Below, in pieces: positions 1 through 38,264 of a stretch of DNA of 64,000 nucleotides. This DNA is from Lingula anatina (lineage: Eukaryota > Animalia > Brachiopoda), in contig CM120642.1 in NCBI GenBank assembly GCA_051362555.1, forward strand, positions 14,818,001-14,882,000, given 5' to 3'. The position numbers were made by a program, and so were the translations under genes. How positions within the stretch are numbered: the first letter of the stretch is position 1; each line of letters begins with the position of its first letter. The notes beneath the pieces are model-generated. The model was not told the DNA's origin, searched no databases, and worked only from the letters and a program-made list of their open reading frames with translations.

Positions 1-1099
1 GGTCTCTTTGAACTCCTAGCTGTCTTCGAACGATCCTACCTAATAGAAAGCCTTCAAAAAATATTATTCCTGAGAAAATGCTTCCGTTGGCCTCATCGCG
101 TGGTTTGTCTTTCTTCTTTTGTTTGTCTCTCTCCTCTTTAAATCGGCCATTTGGTTGGAAAACGAAGGGAGTTGTTCTCTGGGAAGTCTCTGTCTACACA
201 CTGATTCGGTTTAAAGTGACGCTAATTTTGGGACATTTTTTGAAGACATTTATCTATGTTTTGCTTTGTATTCATACATGTAGGCCTACACTCTTCTGCT
301 TGTGGTCAAGAACGTCAGACATCCTTAAGGTTCTTTTTTATTCTGTGCCATCTATTTCAAATTTATTAATTTTTTTTAAACTGTAAGTAGAATATTACAA
401 GCCGAGCAATCCTTTTTTCACGTAGAACTCAATTCATTGCATATGGCGAGCACTTGGGTCTATCATGTATGTCAACCACAACTCGAGTAAAAAAGAAAAA
501 AAATTTAAAATGTTTTCTCTTGATCGTTGATGCACTCTTGTAAATATGCACATAAGTGTCAAAATGAATTAAAAAAATACATCTGGAAGCCTTTCGCACG
601 TCCAACGTTGGTAAAACTTTGATGTAAAGACGATATTTGTTTAAATTTTAACGAGTCTCTGTTTACATGTTTTTATGCACCAATATATTCCACAAAGCGA
701 CTTCGGTTGAATTTTAAGCTCATGATGTTGATGTACGGACATGAACATGGAGTAAATTTTCTTGAACATTATAGCATGACACTATTAAAAACTGAATAAA
801 TGCGCAACTTTTGTCATTTCACGAACATCCGTCGGGAGCTCTAATTTTAATAAAAATATATATTCGTATCCGCCTTTATTTTACAAATCAACGTCACTGA
901 TGGCCTTAAAACTGTAGGCCTATACTACATGTAACTATGATGTTTCACTTTAAATGACAACGAACTTAAAGGTTTTGCACTAGGAAAATAAACATAAACA
1001 TTTAATTGCATGACAGTTCTGTTTACATTCGTACATTTTAAGTCCCAATTATTTGCTCAAATGTTTTGGACGTATTATTAATTTTCAATCCTTCTCGGA

Positions 1100-4000
1100 T
1101 TATTTTTTTGACACGGGTGTGCCAAACATGGCCTCTCCCAGGTCCTCGCTTATCTCGGCCAGCATTTTGGGGTCTTTGTAATAGGTCACAGCTTTGGCCA
1201 TGGCCCAGGCACGCTTGACTGGCTCCACACTTTTGAAAATCCCTGATCCCACGAAGACGCCGTCCACACCAAGTTGCATCAGTAGAGATACGTCGGCTGG
1301 AGTAGCTGTGTAAAATGAAATGAATATAAAATCATAACATAACTTGAAAGGAGGAGAAACAATGTCCTTTTTATTCTTCCGCCATTATAGTGTATTAATG
1401 CTATATACACTCTATACTTACAATTCTGAGGAACTGTCATTCTTTGGACTCGACCGAGTAATAAACAGCCCTATTTCTTTTCGTTTTAAAAAAAATTCAA
1501 GTACACTTCTCCATATCAGTGAATAAAATAACATAAAGCACTTATTATACTAAAAAAGTAAATCTAAAGAAAACAACAGTTTTTCTCACCGAGTCCTCCC
1601 GCTGCAAACTGGACTACTGGTAGACGACCGAGTTCTGCAGTTTGTTTCAGCAAGTCATAAGGAACACTCAACTCCTTGGCGTAACTGAACAGCTCTGGCG
1701 GGTCCAACGTCTGGACTTTACGGATCTGCTGCCGTATTATCCTTGCATGACGAACTGCTTGGCTAACATCACCTGAAACACAGACGTACCCATGCACTAA
1801 TCAACTACAAAGTGATATCCGATTATTTGAACAGTCTCAGATGGGAATTTAGGGGCTAAAGACTTTCTCATGAACGGTTGTTTTAATGCCTAGAAAAATT
1901 AATTAAGATCGGACTTTTTCCTAGTTTAGTGTACCTGTTCCTGCTTCGCCTTTAGTTCGTATCATCGCAGCTCCCTCTGCTATGCGTCTCAGCGCCTCCC
2001 CGAGGTCCCGTGCACCGCATACGAAGGGCACAGTGAACTGGTGCTTGTCCACGTGATGGTCGTCGTCCGCATTGGTTAAGACTGCATCAAAAGATAAAGA
2101 ATGAATTTTTTAAAAGAACCAGTACTAATATTTATTGTTGCAGTTATTACTTGTAAGTAACTAAAACACATTATGACAAGGTAAATGGTAACTAAAGGGT
2201 ATGCGTTAAACTGCACTTCAATAAATATTGATTCTTCTTTGGGACATAACGGCATATAAGTTATTATCATATTTTCCTTAAACTGATTTAACTTTAAAGA
2301 CTACTACATGTATTGCAACAATAAAAGCACCAAGACACCCATTTGTTAAAACTACAAACATGGACGATATGCGCTGGCAGATCCAGTAAAATATCATTGG
2401 AGGGGGGGGCGGATTGTGGCAGTTTGCATTATCAAGTATTTTAAAGCACGCTTTATTAGCCAGTCTTCATGTTGTGACATTTTCGCCATCTGGGTGGTGC
2501 AGGGGGGGGGGGGAGTGGGTCTGCCATTTTGATCTGTAAAAGGGGACAGTGGGTACGGGCTTCTTGTTTCCCCTGGATCTGCCTATTACATCATCAAGAG
2601 TGTAATACATTTTTGATATAATCTGTAGAGAATACCTACCCTCTGATTCATCAATCATATCCACTCCTAGAGCCTGGAGGATTTGAGCTTCAGCGAAATG
2701 TCCAATGCGACATTTGGCCATAACAGGTATCGTCACAGCGTCCAAGATCCCTTTTATCATCTAGAAAAGGTGAAATTTTACACAGATAAAAGGTATAAAG
2801 AGATTTTAAATTCGGTGTCCTTTGAACGTGCTGTCATCATAAAAGAAAGCATTAAGTCTTCTTACTTTAAAAACACCATACTTCAAATCTGCTCCACATT
2901 AACCGGTTAAAGTAATACCTCCATAAGTATACTTCTCTTTCTTGGTGATCAATCGATATGACACGCTCCGATTTATGTCCCTATTAAAATTAAGAATCAG
3001 ACCATAAACAGAGCAGTTCTTCTGTCATACTTTACCTTGGGATCAGACATTCTAGCCACGCCCCCCTGACTGCGGATATCTGCCGGTACCCTCTCCAGTG
3101 CCATCACTGCGCATGCCTGAAACACATAACGGTAAATATTTTACTTCTCTTTGGGATTTCTTTGTCTCTGTTGCAAGCCCTAAAATAGCATTTTAATAGG
3201 GCACATAAGGTCAATTGTTTTAGCACGTAACCAAAAATATTTGCAGCCCAATTATTATTATTATTCAGCTATAGGTCAACAGAGAAAAAGCGCTATGTTA
3301 GTGTACATGTATCAAAACAAACACATATGTTATAATATTGCGTCTTGGAAAGAAAGTGAGACTTAAAATCGTACCCCTGCTTCTTCTGCAACCCTGGCCT
3401 CCTCTGGAGTGGTGACGTCCATAATAATTCCTCCTTTAGCCATCTGTGCCAGGCCCGCTTTTACTTTGAATGTCCCCGTCTTGGGGACAGTCGGCCCCGT
3501 TAGGGACAGATTGCACACGCCTTCCGCAACGCCGTTCATTGCACCTAGAGAGAAAAGTTTAATCATGTGTGCTGATTCTTCAATCGTTCAGTTTATACAG
3601 GTATAACGTGTTTTAATCACCATCATCATAAGTTACGACGGAGAGCAAATGAAACAAACTCGGTTGATCCTTTTTGTTCTCTTTTGCGACAACAAAACCC
3701 AAATATGAAGGTGCGCTGTATCAGACCTGAAATAACTGCGGCAAACTTGCACAGATAACACAGAGGAATCACACAAAAAAAAAATCCATATTATACTGGT
3801 AGGATGGATAAAGGTATACTATACGAATTTGAAAACGTCCCAGATCTAGAGTCATACATGTATTTCAATCCAAAAAAGTTTTTTTCCCCCGAGTAGGATA
3901 CACTCATAAATTTGAAATAATATTTTTTGCAGAGAATAAGTATAATACAAGCATACTCCTACATAACATGTATGCACAGTGCCTGGTATGTTTAATCCCC

Positions 4001-4668
4001 CTATAATAATGTAAGCGCCTTAATACCTTAAAGCTGTAGATATGCAAATGAACAAGATATTGCCGTGTTGGATAACCACCTTCCATGTTTTTTTATGACA
4101 TATTCTCGACAGTCAGTAGCTGTGGGCCTGCTTCAACACCTGTTGATGCAGGTAGACAAAAGACATTTCCAACGGAAGAGAGTTTAACAACATAGGCGTG
4201 TTATTCTCTCTGTGTTGAATGTATGTATGCAAGTTGTTGTTAACATGTATGCATGTTTTATAACGCTAACAATCTGCCTGCTTATTCGTCTAAATGCCTT
4301 TGATAAATTGAAGCCATTTTCACGTATGTTGGGTTTTCACGTACTGCTGGCATAATGATGACTCATATGTTTTTGTCGATTGCATAGTGTATACTAAGTG
4401 TGCACTATCACAGTAATTTGTGTAAATGATATTTACGGTTTTTAAATGATAGGTAAGAATTTCCCATGACACTCGGGTTAAACGTGTGATCGTCACGCTC
4501 ATCAAGCACATAAATGCGCCCTATGTACAGGGTCTTTATAGGTATGCAATGAAAGACTTTACAGTCTGCACGTGCCATATTATTTGATCTCTTGACGATC
4601 ACCGCATACGTCTACATGATCAGATGCAGCAGACAGGTGAAGGAAACACACTTACCATTCATGTTCAT
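1100..4668 (-). CDS. PDX1: Pyridoxal 5'-phosphate synthase, synthase subunit (PDX1/SNZ/PdxS), ~306 aa, 7 coding exons
   Basis: Exons (minus): 4668-4656, 3544-3375, 3116-3036, 2760-2640, 2081-1935, 1772-1590, 1305-1100. All junctions are GT-AG and frame-consistent (921 nt). Translation contains family motifs [99 protein letters not shown] and [11 protein letters not shown]. Residues equivalent to catalytic Asp24, Lys81 and Lys149 (B. subtilis numbering) are present. The 13-nt first coding exon (MNMNG) is less certain than the in-frame ATG at 3539. Confidence 0.96.
2376..2583. mobile_element. Short non-autonomous element (MITE-like) in PDX1 intron
   Basis: Perfect 11-bp inverted termini GGCAGATCCAG (2376-2386) and CTGGATCTGCC (2573-2583) enclose G-tract-rich sequence. 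A related terminus CAGGGGCGGATCCAGG occurs at 35209-35224. Confidence 0.6.
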
Positions 4669-5825
4669 TGTGTCGGGAATGGAGCGTCTGTTGGCTGATG
4701 TAAGCGCCGTTCTTGAAAATATCGCAGTGCCTTCTTTGGGGAGACTTTCTTCTATCTTAGCTGTGTACTAAATGGCCACCGACGTAAGAAGTTATGAAAC
4801 CACAAAACAAACAGCGTGAAATGAAAAGCTGGGTCGACGGTGCAATTAAGTGCTGTTATTTCGTAAGCCTGTCTGTGAGGATGTTATTAATGCAGAGTTG
4901 CTATTCAATTTAGAATTACTCAAGTAGAAAGGCCTTAAATTTCGACAGACTTCATAACATTGTAATCGACGCAAATTTTCTGTACACAAGAGAAAGGTAG
5001 GTGAAAGTGGATAAAAATTATCACATAAAGAGTTGTTTAATTGAGCGGGTACAAAGGTATGACCCTTGGACGGCAACAATGAACCCCTGTGTGTGGTAAG
5101 CCATTTGTAAGCCCCAACTTCCCCTATTACCTTAAATTTATGATGAAATACACGTGTTTACTTTGGGAAACCAATCACGTTTTGGCCATATAGCTCAGTG
5201 TACTAATTATGAACTGCATAGCTATTACGATGAAATGAAATACGCTCACAATCAGTGTCACAAAACAATCAACAGCAAAGAGGGGCTCCCTGAATTAAGT
5301 TGTGGTTATATCCGCATTTAAGAGTAAGGAGTGAAGTCCCTGCTAAGGTAGGCCAAGGTTACTTTTATCTTTTAAACCACGGGACTCTAGATTTCTCCTC
5401 TAAAGTTTGTTTATTATAATATACGTTATGCAATGATGGAATGGAGCTTTGGGGTATATCACGATGTATCGGTGATGTATGCTGTCTCGTATAACAATCA
5501 CATACATACACTACTAAAAGTGTATTGATGGTTGGCAATTTCACCTATCCGTCGGAAGCGTGATATGGATATTTAGGCCTAACATGCCACAAATGTGACC
5601 GGTTGAAGTGTCCGAACTGTCACCTGTTGACCTACAAGGCTTAAAATTAGGGACTCAAGACTTTCCCAAATAGACCTATTGTATTTCAGCAGAAAAACCT
5701 TATGGGTCCTTTTAAACAAATAAAGATGTACTAGTATATTTGTATATATTTTAAGCACTATTAGCACCGTAGTGTTATTCTAATTGTTATTATCTTTAAT
5801 CATGATAGGAACCTTACTGGCAGCT
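4669..5825. promoter_or_regulatory. Shared bidirectional promoter and 5'UTR region of PDX1 and PDX2
   Basis: Lies between the divergent start codons (4668 minus, 5826 plus). Contains CCAAT at 5171-5175 and a likely non-coding PDX2 5' exon ending at AAG|GTAGG (5347/5348). Confidence 0.6.
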
Positions 5826-6939
5826 ATGCCAAATTCAGGGGAACTAAGGATCGGCATTTTAGGAATTCAAGGCGCTTTTCATGAACACAAAGTCGCCCTC
5901 CTGAAAGCCCATGAAGCCGCCAAGTCCGACCACCTCTCAGACTGGACACTGGACATCGTGGACGTACGATCACGGGAAGATGTCACTGACGATTTAGATG
6001 GACTAATACTGCCAGGAGGTGAAAGCACCACCATGAGTCTATTCCTGAAGAGAGAAGGCTTAGATACTGTTCTCCGAGAATGGATGGCGAAAAAGAGGCG
6101 AGTGACGTGGGGCACGTGCGCAGGTATGATTCTACTGGCGGAGAACATTGAGCATCAGAAAGAAGGAGGGCAATCTCAGGTATGGGAATTGTGTTAGGTG
6201 GGGAAAACAAAACCATGTACCCTCTTGAAATACGTTTATGCTACTTAATTTATCTAACGGGTATTGACTCTGGCAAGTTGTTAATTCACTTTGGGTAGCG
6301 CCCAGCAGTCATTATAAAGTTAGGTTGGTCGGAGTAACATATTTTTGAACTTAATAAATATTCAAATACTTAAAACATTATTCTAGCTTCTCCAAGATTG
6401 CAAGTTAAGGACCTAAGCAGGTCAATGATGTATGAGCGTTGTTCTTCTGAAATAAATTCTTTTATTTGACTTATAATGATCTTCATTTGGCAGATATATG
6501 TCACAATTATTTTGGTAGATCTTTATATTGAACAAAATTTGTTAGTTTAGCCAAACATTTATTTTTAAACTGATGTGATTTTTTCCAGCTGGGAGGCCTA
6601 CACGTGACAGTTTCACGGAACTATTTCGGTCGCCAGGTGGACAGTTTCGAGGCTGACGTCACTGTTTTGTCAAACACTTTAGCCGGTTCTTGTGAAGACG
6701 ACAAAACATGCAGGGGCGTCTTCATCCGGGCACCTGCCGTTATATCAGTGGATGACCCAAGGGTCAAGGTTATCGGTAGTTTGACCTTCACCGACAGAGA
6801 GCAGTCTGTCAGGTCTGTGATTGTCGCTGTGCAAGAGGAGAATACCCTTGCCACAGCATTTCACCCAGAACTTACAGACGACACCAGATGGCATAGACAT
6901 TTCTTAGAAATGGTCAAACGAAATAAAACTTCCATTTAA
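5826..6939 (+). CDS. PDX2: Pyridoxal 5'-phosphate synthase, glutaminase subunit (PDX2/SNO/PdxT), ~234 aa, 2 coding exons
   Basis: Exons 5826-6179 and 6589-6939, joined by CAG|GTATGG ... TTTTCCAG|CTG (phase 0). Motifs: IGILGIQGAFHEH, LILPGGESTT, WGTCAGMILL (nucleophile Cys), RNYFGRQVDSFE, GVFIRAP, ATAFHPELT (His-x-Glu of the class I glutamine amidotransferase triad). Confidence 0.96.
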
Positions 6940-7394
6940 CGCAATGTAGTTTAAACCGTTTTTTTTTTTTTTTTTTTTGAAAAATTAGACAAGTATATTG
7001 GAAGTTGTAATCCAAGGAATCAGCAGATGAAATGTAATTTAGCTGAGCTATAGATAAAAAGCGTTTGTTTTGGCTCCATCGTTACAACAATAGTCGTGTG
7101 TTTAATTATGACTTAAAGGTTAATAAACAAGAATGGCATTTGACATGGTGTAAATCTCAATGGTTATGCTATGATTGAACAAGAGCAGTATACTTAAGAC
7201 AATTTCAACAGCAGGTGTGTTTTTCAAGTTATTAAATCTTACATTTCGATGATATGTCTATACCGTATCCCAGTCGAATCCAGTTGAGTCAAACTAAATG
7301 TAAAAACAAATATTTACGTGTGTATCATTTGTTTGTTTAACTATCAAAATGTTCTTAGCTATCAACCCCCGATAAGTTTTTTATTCTCGGTATA

Positions 7395-7572
7395 CTTGAT
7401 TAAGACTCTATCGATTATTTAAACATTAAACATTCCCATGGAAAAAGATACAGAACTCACAAGAAAAAAACATGAAAAAAACGCTTGATTTAGACTCTAT
7501 TGATTTTTTAAACATTAAACATTCCCATGGAAAAAGATACAGAACTCACAAGAAAAAAACATGAAAAAAAAA
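7395..7572. repeat. Tandem direct duplication, ~89-bp unit x2
   Basis: AGACTCTAT...AAACATTAAACATTCCCATGGAAAAAGATACAGAACTCACAAGAAAAAAACATGAAAAAAA occurs at 7403 and again at 7492 with few mismatches. Confidence 0.9.
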
Positions 7573-8713
7573 CACTTTTTGTTTGAAGTTACCGGGGCCG
7601 TAGATTGCAGGAAGGGCATCCCCTCCACTAAAAAAAAATTTAAAAAGAGATCTTAATAAAATGTTAGCTATTGCCTTTCTCCCAGCCCATCACAAGCTTC
7701 TTACTTTTCCTACGGTCAGCGTTGAGAAGACTTGCACAGACGGTGCAAATGACCTGTTACCTACAGTTTGTATATATGGATTGTAGGCTGTCAACAGTTA
7801 CCATCTACCAACGTTTTTTTCAGCCTAAACCCTCTGCACCCCAGGTTGTAACTATTCAACACCGTAAAATAGAGCCTGTAGGGTATTGTACTAATGGCAA
7901 TATACTCATTTTTCGGTACTAAACGTGGCTATAAACATTATAATTGCTAATTGTAATGAACTTAAGATAATATTTGTGGCAAACTGGTCTTGTCTATTGT
8001 GAAACAAGCTGGTGGTTTAGTCATTTAAAGCCCCCAAAATGATATTGTCACTTATGTGGGTAATATATGTACTTAACCCTTTACCAATGGCACAGATATA
8101 ATTTTTATCTAGATATTCACGCATGTTTCTGTGGCTATTCACAAGCTGTCCACATTTTTTATCAGTCTGGACGGGTGAGAGTTGTTGCACAATGACTGCG
8201 TCATTTCTCAGTCGGTTTCTGGTAGATTGAACATGTAGGCCTACATGGAATACATGTGCATGAAAACAAACGTCGATAAATGGATGAAAATCTCTTAGGG
8301 ATCGATCTAGGCATGGGAACCCAGTCTAAATGTATCATTTAATTCAATACCAGAGTTATAAGAATCTGCTTTAGAGAAAAACAAAATCAAAAACATTGAA
8401 TCTACTTGATTACACATCATACAAAAAACATGTACTGCGTTATGATAAGGAATTGATGTTACTAATCATTTACTGTTTTTCAAGTTACGAACTTGCGTAT
8501 ATAAATATATACAAGGGAATAGACCAACAAATCACTCGCGTAATGTTTCTACCGCAAAGGGCAACGTTAGGCCTGTTTTACAACGGCTACGCGAGATCAC
8601 AGCACTTATATACATGTAAATATATGGCTGTGTAAATCAACAAATTAAATTAACTGAATTGGCAAATTAGAAGTCCGGATTTTTTCTCAATCTTTTCGGT
8701 TTGCTTGTCAAAA

Positions 8714-10354
8714 TTACAGACCAGTTTCTTTCCTCTCGCCCGTTTCCTCCTTATCGTCATTCTTTATTTGTTCTTGTTCCGGTGTTTGGTCACTCGTTGC
8801 GTTTGGTTGAACGCTGCGACGTCGTTTTCGTAGGTACAGGTACGCTACCAGGCCACCTAAACCGGCGAGAAGCACGAGGAAGGAAGCGCCGACACTTGTA
8901 CCGATTATAATGCCTTTGTTTGAAGGTGATAACTTGAGGATGTTGCCTCGGCTGACGTCCGTCTCATTGGTTTCTCCGTTGGCATTCTCCGTTGTAGGAC
9001 TTGGTGTTATTGGTGCATTTTTGGATGGAATTGCGACAGTATGACTTGTTGTGGTCTCAGATGCGACTGAAACTGCGGACCCGGAAAATATCCCTATCTG
9101 TGTAGTAGTAGTTGGATCTGGACAAGCGGTTTTGTACTTCACGTACCAAGAGTTTGATGTGTTCAATGCATTGATTAGTGGGTCGGCTTGAACCTGACAT
9201 ATAATTTAAAAGAACATTTACACAATTCTTGATAATTTCGAAGTAATATAAATGTCTCTATCTCTAATTTAGAAAAACTCAAGTTTATTTGTTTCAGACA
9301 ATTTTATATTTCTCTGTAGTCGGGTTAGATTATATTACAAAAACGTACATTTTGCTCCGGGCATATTGCTATTACCCTCTATACCTTTTTGCATGTTACA
9401 TAGTGATATAATCGAGTAAAAGGTAGGCCTATTGTAAAGAAAATCCTGCTTACCTGCGCATAGGGCCTCAGACAAGTTCCCCGTCAAGTGGTACAGACCA
9501 GAAAAATTGTCAACAATGAAAGCATGGTTGGACACCGGCTCGCTGACTATTGCTTGCATGTCAATGAGCTGTGTCTTATTGCCCACACCTACGGCGTATA
9601 TTTCGATGCCCTGACTTTTTACTGGGAATGCTCTTTGAACAGTTAAGCAAAATCTGTCCATTATATCCGTCGTAATGATAACAGCTATTTTCCTGGTATT
9701 ATTACGACCCCCTCGTGAATCAGCAGGATTGAGAAAAACCGTTCTTGCAAGGTAAAGGGCTTTGTAAGTTTGACTCCCAAATAAAGAATTTTCGTGAATA
9801 GTCAGAGGCTTACTTAATGCGCTCATGACATCTGCTTCAGACCGTTTTGGATCTAGTGTTATAATTGCATTTACTGTTGGTATAAAAGATATAACTGCAA
9901 CACTATCTTTGCCCGGACGTACCTCGAAGGTATCATTGACCAAACTTTTCAGGAGATACTGAATCTTCGGGCCATCGTCAGGTTTTCCAGTAACATCCAA
10001 CAGGAATGCTATATCAGCGTTAGCGAGCTCTGAAATCACATGAAAGATACCTAAAACTACTTAACTACGTCATTTAGAAGAAATCCACAAGAATTGTAAG
10101 TGTATGCCTACTCATTACAGTATAACTGTCCAATTGTCCAATACGCTGTGTATGCAAGTTTTGTTTTTAATTTACTTTCATTTGATACACTATACATGTT
10201 ACAATATAATTAATTTTTTTCCACAGTGTGTTCGAGTAATGTTTATAATGTAAGTCAAGGCCTACTTACTGCATCCGATAGCCGTTCGGAGTAAAACGGG
10301 GAAAACTGCCACACCAATAATGAAATAAATCGCTCGAAGTTTCGTCTCTTCCAT
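8714..10354 (-). CDS. Single von Willebrand factor A (VWA) domain type I membrane protein, ~377 aa
   Basis: Exon 1, 10354-10270: signal peptide MEETKLRAIYFIIGVAVFPVLLRTAIG. Exon 2, 10029-9454: VWA (ADIAFLLD, VAVISF, TYKAL, KIAVIITTD, GIEIYAVGVG, IVSEP...HAF.VDNF). Exon 3, 9186-8714: Thr/Ser/Pro-rich stalk, TM segment IIIGTSVGASFLVLLAGLGGLVAYLYL, RKRRR stop-transfer, short acidic tail. The exon 3 acceptor is ambiguous (see findings). Confidence 0.82.
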
Positions 10355-14111: not shown

Positions 14112-15760
14112 TTACGCTTGTGGGTCCTGGTCCTCGTCATCCCCCTTCAAGCATTTCAATGCCAGCATTTTCAATTTTTTTACCTTTCCCATGATACTGC
14201 GCCCGTCTATGCCGTCCTCTGGCACACCGGTAGGCTTTGGTAGGTTTTCCAAACATCCCCTTACTCTTTCTTTGAGCTCATCTGGAATTTTGGCAACCAA
14301 GCATCGGAGCAGCCTCGCTTTTCCGTCATTGTTTGCTGGCTCACCGGTGGGCTCTGGTCCGTCAAAACATTCGCGAACTTTTGCCACAAGCTTTTTCAGC
14401 TTCATGAGCCTAATAAACAATAATAATAAAAAAATATTTATAATAGAATAATAGCATGTCTATAATATTGTACAACCCATTGTACAAAATAAAAATGTAT
14501 GACATGTAGTAACTATATTAGAGAAAATTCAGATGTTTGACATTACCATAATTAATTTACTTCACAGTATATATACAAAACGCACTATTTCATTCAAATG
14601 ACATTTTTTAATTACAAGTTCAATATAATATTCTACCTGTAGCTTCACGTTTACAGGGTATGCAGAAATTGTAGGTCCTGAATTTTGCAGCAACAACAAA
14701 AAATCGTACAATGGTTATATATTACCTAACCAATGGTCCTGGTCCTTCTCCCTCTCCACGCTTCGCTGGTGTATCCATCGCTTCTGGTTGTTGCGGGTCC
14801 TGTGCATCGTCATCTCCCTTCAAGCACTTCAAAACCATCATCTTGATTTTTCTGCCCTTTTCCATGATATCGCGCTTGTCTGTGCCGTCCTCTGGGTCAC
14901 CGGTAGGCCTTGGTAGGTTTTCCAAACATCCCCTTACTCTCTCTTTGAGCTCATCTGGAATACTGCCAGCCAAGCATCGGAGCAGCCTCGCTTTTCTGTC
15001 ATTGTTTGCTGGCTCACCGGTGGGCTCTGGTCGGTCCAAACAATCGCGAACTTTTGCCACAAGCTTTTTCAGCTTCATGAGCCTAATAAAAAATTAATAA
15101 TTAAAATAATAATAAAACAATAGTATGCCTATTATAATGTACATCCCATAGTACAAAATAGAAATGTGTGACATGTAGTAATTATATTAGAGAAAATTCA
15201 AATGTTTGACATTACTATAATTGATTTACTTCACAGAATAAAAAAAACGCACTATTTTATTCAAATGCAATTTTTCGTAATTTACAAGTTCAATATAATA
15301 CTAGACATGTAGCTTCACGTGTACAGGGTATGCAGAAATTGTGGGTCCTGAATTTTGCAGCAACAACAAAAAATCGTACAACGGTTATATATTACCTAAC
15401 CAATGGCCCTGGTCCTTCTCCCTCTCCACGCTTCGCTGGTGTATCCATCGCTTCTGGTTGTTGCGGGTCCTGTGCATCGTCACCTCCCTTCAAGCACTTG
15501 ATAAGCATTATCTTGATTATTCTGCCCTTTTCCCTGATGCCGCGCTTGTCTGGCAGACCGGTAGGCTTTGGTAGGTTTTCCAAACATTCTCCCACTTTCG
15601 CTTTGAGCTCGTCTGGAATTTTGCCAGCCAAGCATCCGAGCAGCCTCGCTTTTCCGTCAATGTTTGCTGGCTCACCGGTAGGCTCTGGTCGGTCCAAACA
15701 TTCGCCAACTTTTTCAAGCACTTTCAGCTTCAAGAGCCTAAAAAAATTAATAAAATGATA
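14112..15760. repeat. Tandem exon+intron duplication array, ~670-bp unit
   Basis: Introns 14410-14725 and 15083-15395 are near-identical, e.g. GACATGTAGTAA.TATATTAGAGAAAATTCA and CAGGGTATGCAGAAATTGT.GGTCCTGAATTTTGCAGCAACAACAAAAAATCGTACA. The three exons are highly similar at DNA level. Confidence 0.93.
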
Positions 15761-18679
15761 AAAAAAATAATAATAATAGAACGACAGTCTGTCTGTACGC
15801 GGCAAATATAGAACCTGGACTTAGAATTAAAACTATACAACGGTTACTACAAATTTTTATGACCACAGTGTTGTCACCTTCGTTAAAAAACGGGGAAGGA
15901 CATTTTGGAATATGAAAAACACCGTATAATACATGTACGTATAAATGGCATTCATGGAATAATGTGAATGAAACATGACTGATATTGTGACTCGTGACAG
16001 AAAATCAAAGAATTTTTTAACTTGTAAATTGAAAAATGATCGATTTCCGAGGAAACTCTGTAACTAATGTAGTAAGATTTTATCAAGAAAATTGGCATTA
16101 TTCACGACAAAAGCGAGAACCACAATTCGGTGCCAGCGTCTTGTGTAGGAGATACGAGACCCTTATTACGATGTTTCATTAAAAATGCATTTTTTTTTGC
16201 CTCTTTTCTGATAAAAACAGAGGTGAACTCTTCAAACAATTCCCGGTCACCAGATAGTGGTGCTTATTTTTGTGATTGAATATACATTAAATGGGACTGA
16301 AAAGTGTTCAGGTGAGGGTGATCTGTTTAAAAGCGATATTAGGGAACCATTCCCACAGATATTTGGATCGATCTAACTCCCTGGGGAGTCTCACTAAATT
16401 GCTATCAACTTTACCGGCTTAAATGTCTGTCACGCCTAGTAAAGCTGCCAGGGGGTAATTATCTTTACCCCTAGCCGATTCGGATAGCAAATTAAGTGAG
16501 ACTCCCCAGGAAGTTAGACAGATCGATCTAGGCATGGGAATCTAGTTTCCACCCTAAAAACGCTGCTGCTTCGTCAAAACGTTGAGTTAGCAAATGTATT
16601 TTTGATGCGCCATCACTATTTCATAACATGACTTTTGTTTGGCATTATTTTAGCAGATGAAGAAACAATTCTAACGTATCGATCTTCCTCAAGACATGCT
16701 TAATATAGATATACCCTATTACTAGTCAATCAGTGCTGTGTGGTTTTTACAAACCAGCAGCGTGATTATACAGACTTGACATTTAATATGGAATATTTCG
16801 GTTTCGAAGGTATGCCTAGGTGAAAATGCATTCTTTTTTTCACAAACTCCGATCTCATATAAGATATGTGATTGGAGAAGTGTGTAGTCAGGTGTCTCGC
16901 TACCAATTAACTGAATACCAGGTTTGTTGCGCTGCTGCATTATGTAATATGCAGTGATTTAATTGGGTAGTGCTCCTTTGGGCTGGTCAAAGCTTGGGTT
17001 TGGCAAAGCATGGTTCTTTCAAAAAAGTATCCATATGTCGGCAACTACTGCATAGAATAATTTAAAATTTTGCATGCAAGTGGTCTGGTTTGCTGTGTGT
17101 AAAATGAGCTATGCAGTGCTTTACAAATTTGTTTATATGTGGCAGAATGGCGCGAAAAAGACAGGCATTGCCAGACAGATAATTGTGCCAAACGAAACGG
17201 TCCGCACAGTTTTATAAAGTAATGCCCAGACTGATGTACCTACACAGAGGCCACACCCAATGTGTTGAAATCTTACCACCAGGGCACAGGACCCACTGTC
17301 TTTCGGGATATGCAGTTGCAACTAAACAAAAGCCACCCAGTCCGTTCAGAATGAGGGGTAAATTGCCACCAAAATGCACTTTTCAAGGCCCTTAGCGAAC
17401 ACCAAACTGGTTTTTGCAGGTAAGAATACCAGACGACCTCCAAGGAACCCACTGTAAACAGCAAAACATCGTTGTATGTTTCTTTAATGAATTGGGGACC
17501 TTGACTGTTTCTGGGTTGAACACTGAAATCTCGTGGCTTTCTGTATTGAGGTCAGATTCCACCTGTACCGCTCAACAGTCAAAACAGAGTTTACAGACAT
17601 CCAGAAGAGGCCAACGACGAAGCGTGTGCCGCATCTAAAGTGACTTAGGTCATTAACAGCGTCAGTATTTGGAGTGGAAAGCACATTGGTGCCAAAACAC
17701 CAATGGTAGTCATCGACGAAAACCTGAACCAGATCAAATAAAGAAATAATCTGGGAACCATTTGGCTATCATTTGATAGGGGGCAACTTAGGAACAATTT
17801 TAGGTTGCACGGTGAGATTGCCGGTTCTTACAGAGCACTTTTAAAAGCAGATTACTTACAGAACCAAGGGAATGAGCAGCTACCTTGGTCATCAAAATCA
17901 CCATATTTGAACCACATAGACAATATGTGGGTAGGCCATTACTCACCAAATCAATGGCCTACATGACCTACAACAAAACTGGACCAAATTGGACAGATTT
18001 TGACCGATGCCTGGAATGTTATTCCAGATTGAACTTTAAAAACCTATCCCAAGGAATCCGTTGCCACTTGAGAGCGCTGGTAGCAGCCAGAAGAGGTCAT
18101 GCGTAACAGCGGCCGTTACTGTGACTAGACACTGACATGAGGGTCCTTTCTGGCGCGTGTAACTCCTTTACAGACAATAATTTGGAAAATATGGAGGTCC
18201 AAAATATCTCTTTTAATGGTTGTCGTCTGACATAGAATAGGCAATGTGTTTTTGTTTGCTTCTCTGTCGAATTCCATTAATGAACTGATGTCACAATGAC
18301 ATCAAAGAGGTAATTTAAAGTTGTTAAAACACGATTTTAATCCTTATTTTAATTTATCAGTCAGCTAAATAGGAAAAAACTGATGAAAAATGATTTGGAA
18401 AAAAATATTCCATATTAAATGTCAAGTCTGTATATACCTGTCTTAGAATTTAAAATAATCAATATATCCCTTATCATTTTAAGAATAGGTCGTCAAAATT
18501 GCGTTTATGCCATCACTTGTCCGTCATGCATCAATGACACATCGTAATACTGAAGCGTGAAAGATATGTACGTACATGTAAGCAAAGATAAATATTAAGA
18601 AAAAAAGCACTTACATGGGCCCGCGGGCTGAGGCCAAACAGACGACAGCGGCCAAAACAACGAGTGTTGCGAACTTCAT
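14112..18679 (-). CDS. Secreted protein of unknown family with three tandem 4-Cys helical modules, ~353 aa, 4 coding exons
   Basis: Exon 1, 18679-18615: MKFATLVVLAAVVCLASARGP (classic signal peptide, AT|GTAAGT, phase 2). Phase-2 exons 15737-15396, 15082-14726 and 14409-14112 each encode one module (KV.ECL..PEPTGEP...KARLL.CL...IPDELK..V..CLENLP.PTG.P...K..K....KCLKG). Total 1062 nt, in frame. Confidence 0.88.
16350..16540. mobile_element. MITE/foldback element in intron 1 of the repeat-protein gene
   Basis: Inverted arms TCTAACTCCCTGGGGAGTCTCACTAAATTGCTATC (16372-16406) and GATAGCAAATTAAGTGAGACTCCCCAGGAAGTTAGA (16483-16518). The outer terminus GATCGATCTAGGCATGGGAA (16521-16540) recurs at 8300-8319. 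Confidence 0.75.
17222..18106 (+). mobile_element. Decayed Tc1/mariner transposase pseudogene (intronic, antisense to host gene)
   Basis: Fragments in shifting frames: MPRL at 17222; IEVRFHLYRS (~17545-17575; compare FSDESRF..Y..DG); DYLQNQGNEQLPWSSKSPYLNHIDNMW (~17850-17930; compare WPS.SPDLNPIEN.W); LRALVAARRGHA (compare C-terminal RAVI.ARGGHT). Multiple stops and frameshifts. TIRs not identified. Confidence 0.8.
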
Positions 18680-20593: not shown

Positions 20594-23500
20594 ATGAAAA
20601 CGAGGCCACTGTGCGGAAGAGAACTGAAACCGAGGCTGCAGTTTAACGGGATGGATGCAGACTTCACCCAGCTCCGAAGTACGCCCAGTAAAATTAAGAC
20701 CGAAAAGGAGCATATTGAAAATGGCCAGAGCGTCAAGACTGGTTGCAACATAATTAACATTAGATCAGTAATTAGAGAGTCAGTATTAGGTTGGTATATA
20801 CGCGCACAGCGCTCTTAATTCCCACTGGTTTCTTTCGCCGGCCAAAAATGGGGGGCCTTTCAAGTTCCAAAAGAAGTTCTTATTAGAAACACACAAGTGC
20901 CCACACTAACTGTTATGAGTATGAGCTGCTCTAAATTACACTTATAAAAAGCAGATACCTTTGTAGAATGAAGCAAGCCCATTTATGCAGTTAATAACAA
21001 GTCCTACAAGTTACTAAAAGTATCTTATGCATATATATTTGTTACATGCAAAGAGTAAAGATCAAAATTTTCTTTTCCATGTTGTTTTTAATTTGTTCCC
21101 CCTCCAAAACTGAGCAAAAACATGACTAAACCACAGGTTAGATTGCACTTCTTTTTCCATAGTACAAACATTCATTAGTTAACCAAGTGTTCTTGTAATA
21201 TATGGTCCCTGGCATGTGCTAGCCCTTATGAAAAAGTCCTACAGGAACCTATGGGACTTTTTCGTTAGGGCTGTTGTGCTATAACATCAAAATAGTGTAA
21301 GCACATCATATCAAAGACTTTATACAGGAGTGCAACAAATAAATTTTAATGTTATCTAGTCTAATGACTTAATGGTTTGGTAAACTAAGAATTATTCACA
21401 GGTCAGAGACTGTTTGTTCTGATATATTTTGTTTCATGGGTAAGTATCAAGATCTGTCAGAGCAGGGAAAATGGTCTCTACCAGTTACCAGTATGTTGCT
21501 TAAATAGAATTTATCGTGAAATCTTGATCCTCAAATGTTGAATTGTTGAACCTTCAGCTGGAACAGTGGTCTTGCTTACATACTTTAAAAAATTTCTTTT
21601 TTGCCAGTTTTGATTTAGATATTGGAACTTAAATACCTTTGGACTGCCCAAATAATTATATCAATCCTGCTTTATTACAGAGAGTCCCTTGATCTAAAAT
21701 TATGCCTAATAGTAATCCAAGTTGCATATGAAGGACTCCTGAATCATCCTAGCTCGTCTCTTGATTATTCTTATAAATGCAGTGTCTTTATTCATTTTAG
21801 GATATGTGTTCTGGAGCCTGTTCCAAGGATTGGGACCTATGATATGGTTTTATCCCCTGAATGAACTAGAAATCTCAGGATATGAAGTATTCTGCCTGTT
21901 GTGGCTAAGTCCAATTGTAACCTGTATTTCTCCAGTATTTCATCTCATTCAACACCCATGGGTGCTGGGCGGCCTACGTTTATTTATGGTCGGTTGCATT
22001 GCATCTTTCCAAGCACCAACAACATTACAGCGCCTGATACTTCTGGCCTTGGGAAATGGGGCAGCCATGTTGGTTTTGGTGGCCACAGTGTGGAAAGATT
22101 CTACATATCAGAGGTATTATTTTGGTGTTATTTCAGTTAATTCTCCTCGTTTATGTTTGTAAAATCCAAACACTCTCATTCAGTTTTTTTTTTCTTTTGA
22201 AAAATGAGGATTATATTTTGTATGTGTTTGTGAAATGTAAGCCTTTTTAGTAGGAAATTTGATTATAGCTGTGTATGTAGAAAGTTAATTTTTGGAAATG
22301 CAACTTAAAGCGTTATGAATTGATGATTTGATTTCTGGGTTGACTTTAAAAGACTATCCGTGTATACCCCAGGTGACTGTTTCTGCTCGTGAGATAACTA
22401 AATTTTAATATTATTATTATAATATTCCAAGCCTGGATATTACATTTCAGATACCTGACATTTTGGGGTCTTATGGTGGGCTTCTTTGCAGTTTTGGCAG
22501 GGAGGATATGGTTCACCTCTTTTATCCCAACATGGTGGGACAATCCAACCAATTCAGCAGTCCTTGCAGTAGGACTCATAGCTACAGTAGACAAAATAAT
22601 GTCTGGTATGTGAAGAAAAGGGAGATATTGCAGGGTGTTTGTGTAGAATCATCATGATACCAAAGTTATGAAATTGTAACTTCCAAAAATAAATTAATTG
22701 ACAAGTACTGTTTTTAGTTCAGTCCTTCACAATCAGTTTCCATGTATTTATATGGTGCTTAAAAGAAGAACAGTTGGAATCAAAAACTACTTGTCGATGA
22801 GATTGTAAATAGAAGTTTATATAAAATAATTATAAAACACAAGCTGAAATGTTTTCATACTGTTAGTTATGGCCAAGTTAGTTGCATAGGGTCCTTGTCC
22901 CTACACCACCTACTGGTCATGGAGTAACAATATCTCTAGATTCACATTAGTCTGATGAAGACCTATGGACAGGTTTGCTGTAAGGTAATTGTATGAAAAC
23001 ATTTCAGCTTGTGATTTATCATAATTATATAATTATGATATTATCCAACTACCAAGCTAATGGACATTTTTTGTTAAATAAAACTTATTTATAAAAATCC
23101 GGCACAGGCATAATTTATCCTGATATGCCAGTGATAATATTATTTGAGTCCTCTCAATAGTTATGATCAACAGTTTTTCCTCTGGTTTTCTATTTTCTTT
23201 AATTTCTTTTCACAACCAAGGTGATGACAGTCTGCCAGTCCAGAAAATCTCTTCCCCAAGGCCTTATTGGCTGTCCACTGGCGTAGGCTTTGGTAGCCTT
23301 CTCTATCTTACTCACTGGATATTTGGAGAAGTTTCCATAGCAACAAGATGGGTGGTGACTGGATACCCTGACCATGGCCCTCAGCCTAATCCCTGGGGGT
23401 AAGAGAGAGATGAGAGCTCCTCTTTTAGATTTTAAATGAATTTATGAATGAATAAAAATAATATACAGTACTAGCATTTGTAACTAGCAAAGTGCTATTA

Positions 23501-26500
23501 GGTTATATATAAATAGTAAAGACCTAGTTTTGTATGTAGTTCTTTTCTTCTCTTGAAGCAAATCTGAAAAGTTTTATGTGGCATATTTGATAGACAATAA
23601 ACTATTTTGTATTGATCTGTTAATATAGGAACAGTGTCTTTGTAACAATAAACCATGACCTTACAGATGGGATGTTTGTCCTAGATAATTTTAATCTTTG
23701 TGCTTTTTGTTATAAATATAAATAAATTAAGTGCTATAATTATTCTTGTTTACATCCTCAGAAGTGAAAATATCTCAATTTCAGGGCTACCATTCTTATT
23801 TCCCTAGCTTTTGGCATACTGGTATGCTGCAGGTTTTCTGCATCTAAAATTTGGTGGATTGATGGAGCTCTAAGCCTGGTGGGCCTGTACTATTTGCCCA
23901 CATGGCAAGGATTTGCATGTAAGTTGTGGCAGTCTGGGGCACATATGTACAGTATGCTGATAAATGGGTTCTTGCTCACACATTTTTGTTTTATCAACAT
24001 TACATTTTTAATAAAAAAAATTATTTAATTTGCAAAAAAAAAAAAAAAAAAAAGAACAGCATGTACTTCATGAAAAATAGAAAACAGAAATAACCAAAAA
24101 ATATGTGCTTGCACAAGATAAAGCAGTTTGTGTGTACTGTGCTAGATGGGAATGATGTATACAGTATGTGCTAGTGGAGGCAGTGTGTGTGCGTGCGTGT
24201 GATTCTCCAGCTAGTATACTTCCATTCTATTATTGTTCACAATATTGTTGCATTTATATTGATATCTGTGTAGATTCTATATTTTTACAGACTTAATGCA
24301 AAATGTACTTAATTCTTCAAATCTTGTAGGTGCTAACCTCCTGGCTATTTACACCATGTCCATCTGGCCAGAGATGATTGACCGACTAAGCAGGTGTCCA
24401 GCGGGACCTACACTGACCCTATCTGTAGTCACTTATCTGGTAGAGATCTTCTTTTCGGTGTGGACTGTGGCATACAACTTTGTCCCCGGAGGAGAGTTCA
24501 CTAGAGAACACACTGACTATCTTATTGGCTTCATGGTGGTATGCTTAGGCTTGGGACTCTTTACAAGTAAGTTGCAACCAATGACTGAATATTTAACTGG
24601 CAAAACATATAGGATGATGTACATATTCTTGTGATATACAAACGTGCTAATTCTGTGAATAAGCAATACTCCGAAGATGCTTAGTGAACTTGCTTTGACA
24701 ATGAGGTTTGTTTGCTTTGATTGAAGGAAATATCTCAGTTTTGTGTAAATATATGATTGATTTTCTGAGGATGTTATCAGGGAAAATGGGCCTAATATGT
24801 TTCTTTTTCCTGCAAAGGCTCAAGTGTAAAAGTCCCTGGCCACACAGCCTTCAGTTTGAAGAAGCCCAATGGCACAGTGAAGGGAGCTCTATTGTGTATG
24901 GTGTTACTGGGTCTGGGAGGATTTCTGTCAAGGCAGGACCCTAACAGATATAATCATCCAGTGAAGGTATCAATAACATGCTATAGAAATGGTCCACTGT
25001 GTTAAAAAGTCTCATTCACTTATAACTTTCTTTTTTTTTTTAAGTACGAGAAATTGTCAAAAAATGTACATGTTTTTGTATTGAGTTTTAAGCTTTTAAA
25101 AATGGATAATTTGTTTAGTCATATTTCCCTAATTTCACTGAATTTTGGTTCATATTCCCAGTATTCACCCAAGACATTCCGTGCCGCTATATGGACGTAC
25201 CACTTCGGATATGATAACAAAGGATGGCCAAGTTTGGAGAGGTCCTTTCAACTATTAAATGATACAGGTAAGGGGAAAAACTAAGTCAAGGATATGTGCA
25301 AAATGACAAGTAAGACCACTAAATGTAGATCCCGGACTGCACTGACTAACTTGGAGAGGTTCTTATGGTGGAGAGGTTCTTCTTATGGTAATATAATAAA
25401 GGTGATGAGGGAGTTGAATATTCATTTGGAGAATTTCCTCTGTTGTTGATGTTTTATGGTGAATTATAAGAGTTGTTAGATTTTATGTTCAGAAATGAGG
25501 AAAATGTAGGGTAATGAAAATTAACTAACATTTATTTAATCATGAATCTTCATTCTTCAACCCTGGAGCAGATGGGGAGAGGGGATCAAGTAACTGTGGT
25601 GCATTTATGAATGACTAACAATATTCAAAATCTCAGGTGCTGACTTCATTACTCTCCTGGAGAGTGATGCATCCAAGCCATTCCTGGGTAATAACGACCT
25701 TGGGATGTGGTTAGGGGAGAGGCTGGGCATGTATGTGGACTTTGGACCCGCTACAAAAGACCACACTTGGGGGTAAGAATTGGGTCATGTTTAAGTTAGA
25801 CCAGTGTTACAGTGTAGATTAAAAAATGTGGTGTGTAGGTCATTAGTTCAAGTAGCTGTATAAAATGGTGAGTGTTTGCTGTGTGAAGGGGACACTTTAC
25901 TTTTCCAGACTCATACATGATAAATTGTACAAGGGCTGAAATGCTGATGAAATTAGTTTTTGTAGTAACAGTATTACCCTTTTCTTATGAATAAAAACGA
26001 ACCGATGAATTTTTTTTACCTTCTTTCAACCCGGTTCAGAAACTTGAAAATAGTATTAAAACAGTTCTTACACTTCTATATAGGTCCTACTGTAGTTTTT
26101 CTCTTACTTGTGAATACATTTCCTGTGTTTGTGAATGTTTTGTCTGCCACTTTCTTTCATCCTGATATCATTTTTGTTTTACAGAAATCTTATCCTCTCC
26201 AAGTATCCCATTGTCAAGTCTAAACATCATCTGCTTCCTTCTCCACATGGTTAGTATTTGTATATGAATATGATGCTTTCATGTCAATAGTGTGTGCTGT
26301 TTATCATTGTAGTATACAGGTACTGTATTTCTAAACCTACATTGTGTATGTGTTTAAATTCATAATAAAAATATTCCATATAATCAGCATTTTTCTTTCT
26401 TCTTACAGGTGAGCTCGCTCCTGGCATTACAGCTACAGTGAACTATAGCGGTAGTCTAGTGGACTTTGTGGTCACACACATGGGCAATGACCGGGATGTA

Positions 26501-38000: not shown

Positions 38001-38264
38001 ATGTGAATGTGGCGATGTGCTTACACTACTAAATTGTCTTATTTTTAATAAAAGTTAAGGCCTAGGCGTAGAATACGTAATGATTTTTACTTTTTTTTCT
38101 CTCTTACAGAAAGGGAAATTCTCTCCGGTATGGTAGCAGACCTTCAGAATCTGCCACGCCCTCCTTCCAATGCGTCGTCAAGGAAATCACGTGTTCCCAT
38201 GGATACCATGGACATGTATGCCACAGGGCCAACCTGGGTGTCAACATGGGTGGGGCCCACGTAG
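32006..38264 (+). CDS. TEX26: Testis-expressed protein 26-like (ciliary/flagellar microtubule-associated), ~396 aa, 8 exons
   Basis: Exons 32006-32113, 33509-33689, 34508-34601, 34883-35045, 36399-36549, 36825-37001, 37258-37419, 38110-38264 (1191 nt, in frame). Repeated T-T-Y-x-x-E/D-Y/F motifs (TTYEREY, TTYDEEF, STYQEDF, TTYDREY). Segments TYELGGPIGATTYDEEF, NNPHP..SFMVW and PELQGNTSRYGC resemble vertebrate TEX26 as recalled. Confidence 0.8.
32968..33110. mobile_element. Small MITE-like element with internal palindrome in TEX26 intron 1
   Basis: Imperfect inverted termini GACCTGTCTATC (32968) and GGTAGACAGGCC (ending 33110) enclose a 39-bp near-perfect palindrome AGCTGTTACCGTAAATATTAATATTTTACGGTAACAGCT (32984-33022). 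Confidence 0.55.
35632..35713 (+). tRNA. tRNA-Ser (anticodon UGA), 82 nt, within TEX26 intron 4
   Basis: Acceptor stem GCTGCGA/TCGCAGC plus discriminator G; A-box TGGCCGAGTGG; anticodon arm TTGGA-CTTGAAA-TCCAA; long variable arm GGGATTTTCCC; B-box GGTTCGAATCC; followed by a Pol III T-run terminator at ~35719. Confidence 0.96.

Follow-up and report, generated by a model that had tools for sequence, protein, structure and literature searches.

A brachiopod of the genus Lingula carries an intact, spliced, and transcribed head-to-head gene pair, PDX1 and PDX2, that we consider probable to have descended vertically from the animal common ancestor and to encode a working PLP synthase. This animal therefore likely makes its own vitamin B6, as predicted from its sequence, and it would be independent of a dietary supply. 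The pair lies near one end of the window, by which we mean the whole 64,000-nucleotide stretch of Lingula anatina DNA analyzed (contig CM120642.1, positions 14,818,001 to 14,882,000).

Structure and expression of the gene pair

PDX1 occupies the minus strand and has seven exons encoding 306 amino acids with no internal stops; its six GT-AG introns measure 1111, 258, 275, 558, 162, and 284 nt in the order from exon 1 to exon 7 (Table 1). PDX2 occupies the plus strand, with two coding exons for 234 amino acids and a single 409-nt GT-AG intron. Both frames and their catalytic residues are intact in this head-to-head arrangement, and these gene models and splice sites bear out an earlier note on this DNA, which had read two intact subunits with catalytic residues and six plus one canonical introns from the letters alone. 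RNA reads from four runs in three studies joined all seven coding introns, supplying the spliced transcripts that the note had proposed as a check. The joint across PDX1 intron 1 was present in one RNA run only, with identical length and a register shifted by 3. In the stranded RNA run X14, PDX1 and PDX2 transcripts came from opposite strands.

Table 1. Features of the PDX1-PDX2 locus, numbered from the first nucleotide of the window
Feature	Position	Strand	Remarks
PDX1 3' UTR	871..1099	-	RNA read depth, loose ends at 871; AATAAA/ATTAAA hexamers at 880 and 851
PDX1 coding exon 7	1100..1305	-	Residues 239-306; ends in 14 protein letters not shown here; without conserved C-terminal Arg
PDX1 coding exon 6	1590..1772	-	Residues 178-238
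PDX1 coding exon 5	1935..2081	-	Contains K172 and start of GTG loop
PDX1 coding exon 4	2640..2760	-	Contains K104
PDX1 coding exon 3	3036..3116	-	Frame, PF01680 match, RNA joints
PDX1 coding exon 2	3375..3544	-	N-terminal VCNLSL motif of type A; D47
PDX1 coding part of exon 1	4656..4668	-	First ATG at 4668; exon continues upstream as 5' UTR to ~4800
Head-to-head upstream region	4669..5825		1158 nt between the two ATGs, common to both genes
PDX2 exon with start codon at 5826	5809..6179	+	Coding 5826-6179; residues 1-118; PGGEST, C98
PDX2 last coding exon	6589..6939	+	Residues 119-234; H210, E212

RNA joints and splice sites placed alternative PDX2 5' exons within the upstream region; their donors lie at 4997 and 5348. 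A three-read loose end suggests that a further donor probably lies at 4700, overlapping PDX1 exon 1 on the opposite strand. The upstream region likely functions as a bidirectional promoter, and with this divergent layout a single region would likely drive both genes.

Variation in PDX1 was of a purifying type. Among the differences taken from the 40 best supported of 137 variant rows, 17 of 21 coding changes were synonymous when each was considered by itself, where 24% would be expected (p 6e-8); one more was synonymous on its carrier allele. An apparent stop-creating variant at PDX1 codon 272 was rejected; runs X17 and X18 pair it with a second change in the same codon, yielding Arg.

The earlier note had described the pair as contiguous with animal-type genes. 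CWH43/PGAP2IP exons at 21743-28029 (+) agree with this description, but the names TEX26 and ARHGAP6-like found no Pfam match among 248 ORFs (143 + 105) picked by length and GC from ~810 of at least 35 amino acids beyond position 7000. The MITE family said to be common to the pair and its neighbors did not emerge from a blastn comparison of positions 1-7400 with the remaining window, which returned a poly-T match only; the nearest copy of a high-copy element lies at 8299-8327, outside PDX1 and PDX2. No listed read or contig reached from the gene pair to CWH43.

Catalytic residues and the PDX1 C terminus

Each of PDX1 exons 2 to 6 singly exceeded the PF01680 (SOR_SNZ) cut-off (39.8 to 90.9 bits against 27), and together these exons tile positions 2-207 of the 207-position profile. 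The window PDX1 was scanned against TIGR00343 and NF003215 as single exons only, and the pieces scored below cut-off, as expected for fragments; three whole animal PDX1 relatives passed both cut-offs. A protein atlas search returned the PdxS family only. D47, which we take to be the active-site Asp, K104, K172, and a GTG at 176-178 are all in place. Of the 143 columns in which 80 prokaryotic PdxS proteins show at least 95% conservation, PDX1 keeps 131. The roles of the two catalytic lysines (K98 and K166 in Arabidopsis) and of the GTG P1 loop are those given in excerpts of PMC8313854.

The PF01174 (SNO) cut-off was exceeded by each PDX2 exon. The Cys-His-Glu triad of PDX2 is formed by C98, H210, and E212, the His being the one changed to Asn in structure 4WXY; PGGEST is at 63, and PDX2 keeps 35 of the 38 columns that reach the same conservation threshold in 63 PdxT proteins. 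A Lingula anatina RefSeq protein with 94% identity to PDX2 scored 161 bits with TIGR03800 against a cut-off of 105.55. By sequence, the pair has the same folds as the PLP synthases of B. subtilis (2NV2), T. maritima (2ISS), Arabidopsis (5LNR), Plasmodium (4ADS), and yeast (3O05), which likewise have catalytic lysines 68 residues apart and the Cys-His-Glu triad. Unlike these enzymes, the window PDX1 has an N-terminal extension and a shortened C terminus lacking the conserved Arg.

The intact catalytic residues and family matches agree with the note's proposal that the pair likely makes PLP. From what is known of the family, PDX2 would hydrolyze glutamine via C98-H210-E212 and hand the ammonia to PDX1, in which K104 would bind ribose 5-phosphate and K172 would take the intermediate onward to PLP, using glyceraldehyde 3-phosphate. 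The two proteins would assemble into a ring-shaped complex of up to 12 + 12 subunits.

PDX1 ends at a point corresponding to about residue 283 of the 294 in B. subtilis PdxS, so that its C terminus falls ~11 residues short, and it is missing a C-terminal Arg found in 95% or more of the 80 prokaryotic PdxS proteins, a mark of prokaryote-wide conservation and not a formal criterion of the Pdx1 family. In a 35-row alignment, cnidarian PDX1 rows have the same short tail, molluscs have a different tail, and the shortest tail among the aligned rows is the window's. The shortening had been missed by the earlier note. Excerpts of PMC8313854 state that the Pdx1 C terminus contributes to oligomer contacts and that its sequence is not conserved. 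The absence of the Arg from the PDX1 type to which the predicted protein belongs is one of two points that are new here.

Phylogeny, intron positions, and origin of the pair

All named animal rows fell on one branch, separate from prokaryotes, in the PDX1 trees of 93 rows (32/32; SH-aLRT 99) and 35 rows (22/22; 100/99) and in the PDX2 tree of 91 rows (15/15; SH-aLRT 98), and the animal branch of the 34-row PDX2 tree had support of 100/100. Ylistrum PDX2 and near-duplicate isoforms were left out of the trees, as were 55 of 80 GTDB PdxS proteins from the 93-row PDX1 tree and 36 of 63 PdxT proteins from the 91-row PDX2 tree. Named fungi, plants, and unicellular holozoans were absent from the PDX1 outgroup, and nematode sequences from the trees of both proteins. 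In clusters from oyster, Acropora, and others, fragments predicted by a gene caller begin or end at the window intron positions 88, 128, 177, and 238, suggesting that these four positions recur in other animals. The phylogenies and intron comparison that the earlier note had recommended thus favor vertical retention, one of the two origins it had offered. Its wording of an ancestral opisthokont pathway found no support in these trees, the 34-row PDX2 tree placing fungi outside the animal branch and one amoebozoan inside it and the PDX1 trees having no named fungus or unicellular holozoan to compare.

The other origin offered, an old, intronized transfer specific to the lineage, fared poorly. 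Cyst nematodes of the genus Heterodera are likewise animals whose genomes carry genes for making B6 de novo, reported as bacterial in origin in excerpts of PMC11817004, and they provide a precedent for a bacterial or fungal transfer into the brachiopod lineage with later gain of introns. For Lingula we find such a transfer very improbable and largely refuted, in that the pair groups with animals in four of four trees, its closest relatives are other animals, its intron positions are found again in oysters and cnidarians, and PDX1-PDX2 linkage is common across phyla. An older transfer into the stem of animals or of holozoans, with a Chloroflexota-like bacterium or some other eukaryote as a possible donor, would concern only the deep origin and be compatible with vertical descent thereafter. 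We regard it as unlikely. In its favor, fungi do not join animals in the PDX2 tree, prokaryotic proteins come close (Caldilineaceae, 71% for PDX1 and 49% for PDX2), and pdxT lies within 1.5 kb of pdxS at 64 of 80 prokaryotic loci. Against it, high identity is general in the family, the prokaryotic PDX2 rows cluster separately (88/80) and are divided from animals by the fungi, and neither the 35-row PDX1 tree nor the 34-row PDX2 tree gives animals a prokaryotic sister with support. A contaminant or chimeric contig, which the note had already argued against, is hardly credible. The unspanned interval to CWH43 speaks for it, but DNA depth over the pair equals flank depth in three runs, the stretch is present in whole or part in ten DNA runs from four studies under one species label, the pair is spliced in RNA that carries this label too, and the 94%-identical Lingula RefSeq protein is encoded on a 688-kb contig. 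Furthermore, run X8 has one contig that reaches from PDX1 exon 1 across the entire PDX2.

Animal PDX1 falls into two types that run against the species tree (AU p ~0.03-0.04), type A in the brachiopod, molluscs, and cnidarians and type B in annelids, tunicates, and copepods. This split is the other new point, and its conflict with the species tree speaks against the vertical reading. The type-A protein raises the question of whether a conserved and expressed pair might include a PDX1 that is weak, altered, or unable to complete PLP alone, with a regulatory or partial role like that of plant PDX1.2. Its shortened tail without the Arg, the equally short cnidarian tails and differing mollusc tail, and a C-terminal truncation in B. 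subtilis that reportedly impairs catalysis (a result attributed to Raschle in 2009) would fit this reading. We nevertheless judge it improbable, given that the protein has its two lysines, its aspartate, and an unbroken GTG loop, variation is mostly synonymous, PDX2 is retained beside PDX1 in every species checked, and the Nematostella and oyster type-A proteins pass PdxS equivalog cut-offs. Returning to vertical retention of a working synthase, we tentatively propose a fuller history, to which we give somewhat less than an even chance: a linked pair and de novo B6 synthesis would be ancestral and widespread in animals, with two PDX1 versions present before the cnidarian/bilaterian split (or one move between cnidarians and the mollusc-brachiopod line). 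Type A, a PLP synthase working with remodeled N and C termini and no conserved C-terminal Arg, would have persisted in brachiopods, molluscs, and cnidarians, and type B in annelids, tunicates, and copepods.

Distribution in animals and significance

Named orthologs of both genes occur in molluscs, cnidarians, annelids, and copepods, of PDX1 in tunicates, and of PDX2 in a sponge; SNZ and SNO have reportedly been found in the sponge Suberites domuncula, in work ascribed to Seack et al. in 2001. Both genes share a contig, as judged by its identical length, in nine of nine species with both named, and their identifiers are consecutive in Desmophyllum, Patella, and Nematostella. The animal PDX1 proteins, annotated as SNZERR-like or PdxS-like, belong to the same clade as the window's with 76-83% identity, and the animal PdxT-like PDX2 proteins likewise form a clade with the window's and have 48-56% identity; the genes of these animals are linked, and intron positions recur among them. 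Among the matches listed, no PDX1 was named from an echinoderm, hemichordate, amphioxus, placozoan, or sponge, and animal sampling is incomplete because several phyla lack a named PDX1 there. Lingula anatina pdx2 is already represented by XP_013421105-XP_013421111, an automatic annotation ("probable PLP synthase subunit pdx2") whose 234-amino-acid isoform has 14 differences from the window's, none catalytic, and whose alternative N termini fit the alternative PDX2 5' exons; no Lingula PDX1 record was found among the matches listed. The earlier note had thus overrated the rarity of the pair. Since many invertebrate phyla already have annotations of both genes and the Lingula anatina PDX2 is in RefSeq, much of the prior knowledge that it said would remove the novelty is in place.

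Excerpts of a review hold that animals are unable to make vitamin B6 or that some sponges are the sole exceptions (PMC7954711), excerpts of others limit the inability to "most animals" (PMC6253932 and PMC6071262), and an excerpt of PMC4772032 describes synthesis as "lost on several separate occasions." Among the papers listed by our literature search, none surveyed or assayed PDX1/PDX2 in bilaterian invertebrates, but a wide-ranging survey may well have been published. Database records indicate that many marine invertebrate phyla have kept the pair, and the Lingula locus is one further member, not the discovery of animal B6 synthesis genes. What it adds is direct evidence of splicing from a brachiopod, the division of PDX1 into two types, and a PDX1 shortened by nature, which offers a test of what the C-terminal tail does. 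If these enzymes are active, B6 auxotrophy would be a derived state of some lineages, with bearing on bivalve and cephalopod feed design, on marine vitamin cycling, and on claims of obligatory symbiont B6 supply to corals and molluscs.

Gene structure, transcription and genomic setting

The claim in the earlier note of an intact PDX1 and PDX2 pair held up, with open frames, GT-AG introns and the SOR_SNZ and SNO domains all present. PDX1 has six GT-AG introns and no internal stop, and the two genes lie head to head with 1158 nt between their ATG codons. Each of PDX1 exons 2 to 6 exceeded the Pfam SOR_SNZ cut-off, together tiling profile positions 2-207 of 207, and both PDX2 exons exceeded the SNO cut-off; these domain matches are far above chance.

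Features located in the window (window positions)
Feature	Positions	Strand	Description
PDX1	4668-4656, 3544-3375, 3116-3036, 2760-2640, 2081-1935, 1772-1590, 1305-1100	-	Seven exons, 306 aa
PDX2	5826-6179, 6589-6939	+	234 aa, single 409-nt GT-AG intron
ORF	8717-9205	-	Thr/Ser-rich stalk and hydrophobic stretch, then basic residues
VWA-domain ORF	9338-10060	-	Domain match
CWH43/PGAP2IP gene exons	21743-28029	+	Pfam profile match

Four RNA runs from three studies, with the same species label as the DNA runs containing the stretch, were mapped onto window positions 600-7600. RNA reads joined each of the seven coding introns, six in PDX1 and one in PDX2, providing the splice support that the earlier note had proposed as a check. 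We observed the 1305-1590 joint of PDX1 in all four runs and the 6176-6586 joint of PDX2 in three of four. The joint across PDX1 intron 1 was found in one of the four (X14, 24 reads), equal in length and shifted in register by 3, and runs X17 and X18 contained another first-exon join for PDX1. PDX1 and PDX2 reads lay on opposite strands in the stranded run X14. In the RNA reads, the acceptor at 5808 is also joined to PDX2 5' exons whose donors lie at 4997 and 5348, and the loose end of three RNA reads matches 4683-4699, followed by a donor at 4700. We infer a bidirectional promoter common to both genes. In the region 4683-4800, a likely PDX2 5' exon using the donor at 4700 would share sequence with PDX1 exon 1, read from the other strand. 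Within PDX1 intron 1, a 34-nt piece (3809-3842) was matched by RNA reads running on into unrelated sequence and is likely a short repeat transcribed elsewhere.

A contaminant origin of the PDX1/PDX2 stretch is rejected. Ten DNA runs from four studies contained the stretch wholly or partly, six of them with at least half its words (the best may be the source). Depth over 1-7337 was similar to that of non-repeat flanks (42-146 in DNA run X2, 7-13 in X3 and 46-105 in X8), and a 3261-nt contig of X8 covering 3700-4309 and 4367-6947 joins PDX1 exon 1 to the complete PDX2. We did not detect a read or contig listed from the DNA runs that extends from the pair to CWH43. The best PDX2 match was Lingula anatina RefSeq pdx2 (94% over 234 aa), which places the window in Lingula or in a species very near to it. 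Codon 272 of PDX1 (1205-1207) is Trp in the window and changed to Arg in all RNA reads and in X2, X3 and X8; the Trp could represent a rare allele, or else an error in the assembly.

The animal gene context described in the earlier note was borne out for CWH43, whose exons we located, and not for a MITE common to the pair and its neighbors, since blastn found none common to 1-7400 and the rest of the window. Among the window ORFs scanned, no Pfam match was observed for TEX26 or ARHGAP6-like, for a 592-aa ORF at 47581-49356 (+), or for an exon-like ORF run at 33509-38261 (+). Together, 8717-10060 (-) looks like a membrane-anchored VWA protein, and RNA depth was absent there in X14. Elsewhere, an element at 16346-18436, with a short copy at 8299-8327, reached about a thousand-fold flank depth in three DNA runs and contains an inverted repeat (16349-16541), and 14118-15748 consists of three diverged tandem units of ~670 nt each.

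Origin and distribution in animals

All named animal PDX1 proteins fell on a single branch (32/32, SH-aLRT 99, 93 rows; 22/22, 100/99, 35 rows), with an outgroup without named fungi, plants or unicellular holozoans. The 15 named animal PDX2 proteins likewise shared one branch (15/15, SH-aLRT 98, 91 rows). In a careful PDX2 tree, Dermamoeba and eight unnamed rows joined the animals on a branch with 100/100 support, and both fungi (89/89) and prokaryotes (88/80) lay beyond it. The placement of the PDX2 of this amoebozoan (Dermamoeba algensis, row P0502) may reflect true kinship, contamination or artefact.

Exon edges were read from gene fragments called on genomic contigs of other animals. A start at window residue 238/239 occurred in 5/6 short members of the oyster cluster and 3/7 members of the Acropora cluster, and one fragment from a member of the cluster grouping with Rhopilema covers residues 89-128. 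Nine of 17 short PDX1 matches started at 178, and 11 ended at 238. These recurring edges point, indirectly, to PDX1 introns that predate the cnidarian-bilaterian split. Because the animal proteins form one branch and the introns appear older than that split, transfer into the brachiopod lineage is rejected. Of the two origins offered in the earlier note, retention gained support and brachiopod-level transfer did not; its wording of an ancestral opisthokont pathway was not borne out for PDX2, for which opisthokont descent was not recovered in the careful tree, fungi lying outside.

The 14 named proteins among the first 24 PDX2 matches all came from animals, namely a brachiopod, molluscs and cnidarians. 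Fungi first appeared at rank 25 and Amphimedon at rank 36, and PDX2 was also named in Owenia and Tigriopus. Named PDX1 matches came from a chiton, gastropods, bivalves, cephalopods, three annelids, two tunicates, two copepods and many cnidarians. Among the matches listed (best 120), the named PDX1 proteins included none from echinoderms, hemichordates, amphioxus, placozoans or sponges. Both subunits lay on equally long contigs in all nine species with both named (Desmophyllum, Patella, Nematostella, Lottia, Littorina, Gigantopelta, Montipora capricornis, Owenia and Tigriopus), three with consecutive identifiers. The matches listed included no record of Lingula PDX1, though PDX2 has seven RefSeq isoform accessions, and PDX1 may be missing or mis-modelled in the RefSeq annotation.

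Two types of animal PDX1

Type A PDX1 (99/94) comprised the window, nine molluscs and five cnidarians, and type B (95/89) comprised three annelids, two tunicates and two copepods. AU tests narrowly rejected holding Lophotrochozoa or Bilateria together (p 0.039 and 0.033; chosen after viewing the tree), a narrowly supported conflict with the species tree. Discrete characters follow the same split. An Asp after the GTG loop with a proline- or otherwise altered tail was present in 32/40 PDX1 rows, and the other eight (8/40) carried Asn with G(I/L)NC, as do plants and bacteria. At the N terminus, 27/32 Asp rows (two loose matches) and 0/8 Asn rows carried a V-x-N-L-like motif. The PDX2 tree hints at a parallel split, grouping Owenia, Tigriopus and Amphimedon (82/91) and leaving other rows without resolution. 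Introns at 177 and 238 are common to fragments of both types. We prefer ancient PDX1 duplication with reciprocal loss as the reading of this split. It may instead stem from transfer between animals, or from convergence in a protein that is short and conserved.

Predicted function of the pair

Window PDX1 retains the GTG loop and D47, which we take to be the active-site Asp, and PDX2 carries C98, H210 and E212. Aligned via an annelid orthologue, K104 and K172 of PDX1 equal K98 and K166 of Arabidopsis PDX1.3, the two imine-forming lysines according to PMC8313854. Of 143 alignment columns that at least 95% of 80 prokaryotic PdxS proteins share, window PDX1 matches 131; for PDX2 the count is 35 of 38 such columns (63 prokaryotic PdxT).

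An impaired or repurposed role for the shortened PDX1 is improbable. This reading draws on the protein's tail, which stops close to position 283 of the 294-residue B. subtilis protein and is without the C-terminal Arg shared by at least 95% of the 80 PdxS proteins, on this alignment the one loss of weight in the protein. Truncation of the B. subtilis C terminus reportedly harms catalysis. The retained K104, K172, D47 and GTG loop speak against impairment, as do mostly synonymous coding differences. Among the 40 rows with the best support out of 137, 21 differences between RNA reads and the window are listed for the PDX1 coding sequence. Taken one by one, 17 of these 21 leave the amino acid unchanged, against an expectation of 24% (p 6e-8), and an additional one is synonymous within its own allele. 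This pattern suggests purifying selection on PDX1. According to PMC8313854, the PDX1 C terminus contributes to oligomer contacts and is not conserved in sequence.

The brachiopod pair probably works as a family PLP synthase. It is established for this family that PDX2 frees ammonia from glutamine and PDX1 assembles PLP from pentose phosphate and triose phosphate (PMC6253932, PMC6071262); the complex is described as a dodecameric ring with up to 12 PDX2. Brachiopod PDX2 would supply glutamine-derived ammonia, and PDX1 would make PLP from pentose and triose phosphates within such a ring.

Our literature search, covering few subscription journals and no supplements, listed no paper surveying or assaying PDX1/PDX2 in bilaterian invertebrates. 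One half of the pair, PDX2, is already annotated in Lingula RefSeq. The pair is real, transcribed and of animal type, with a predicted catalytic role as PLP synthase. These findings present B6 synthesis genes in animals as under-appreciated more than surprising, with the two PDX1 types and the shortened tail as a testable side finding.
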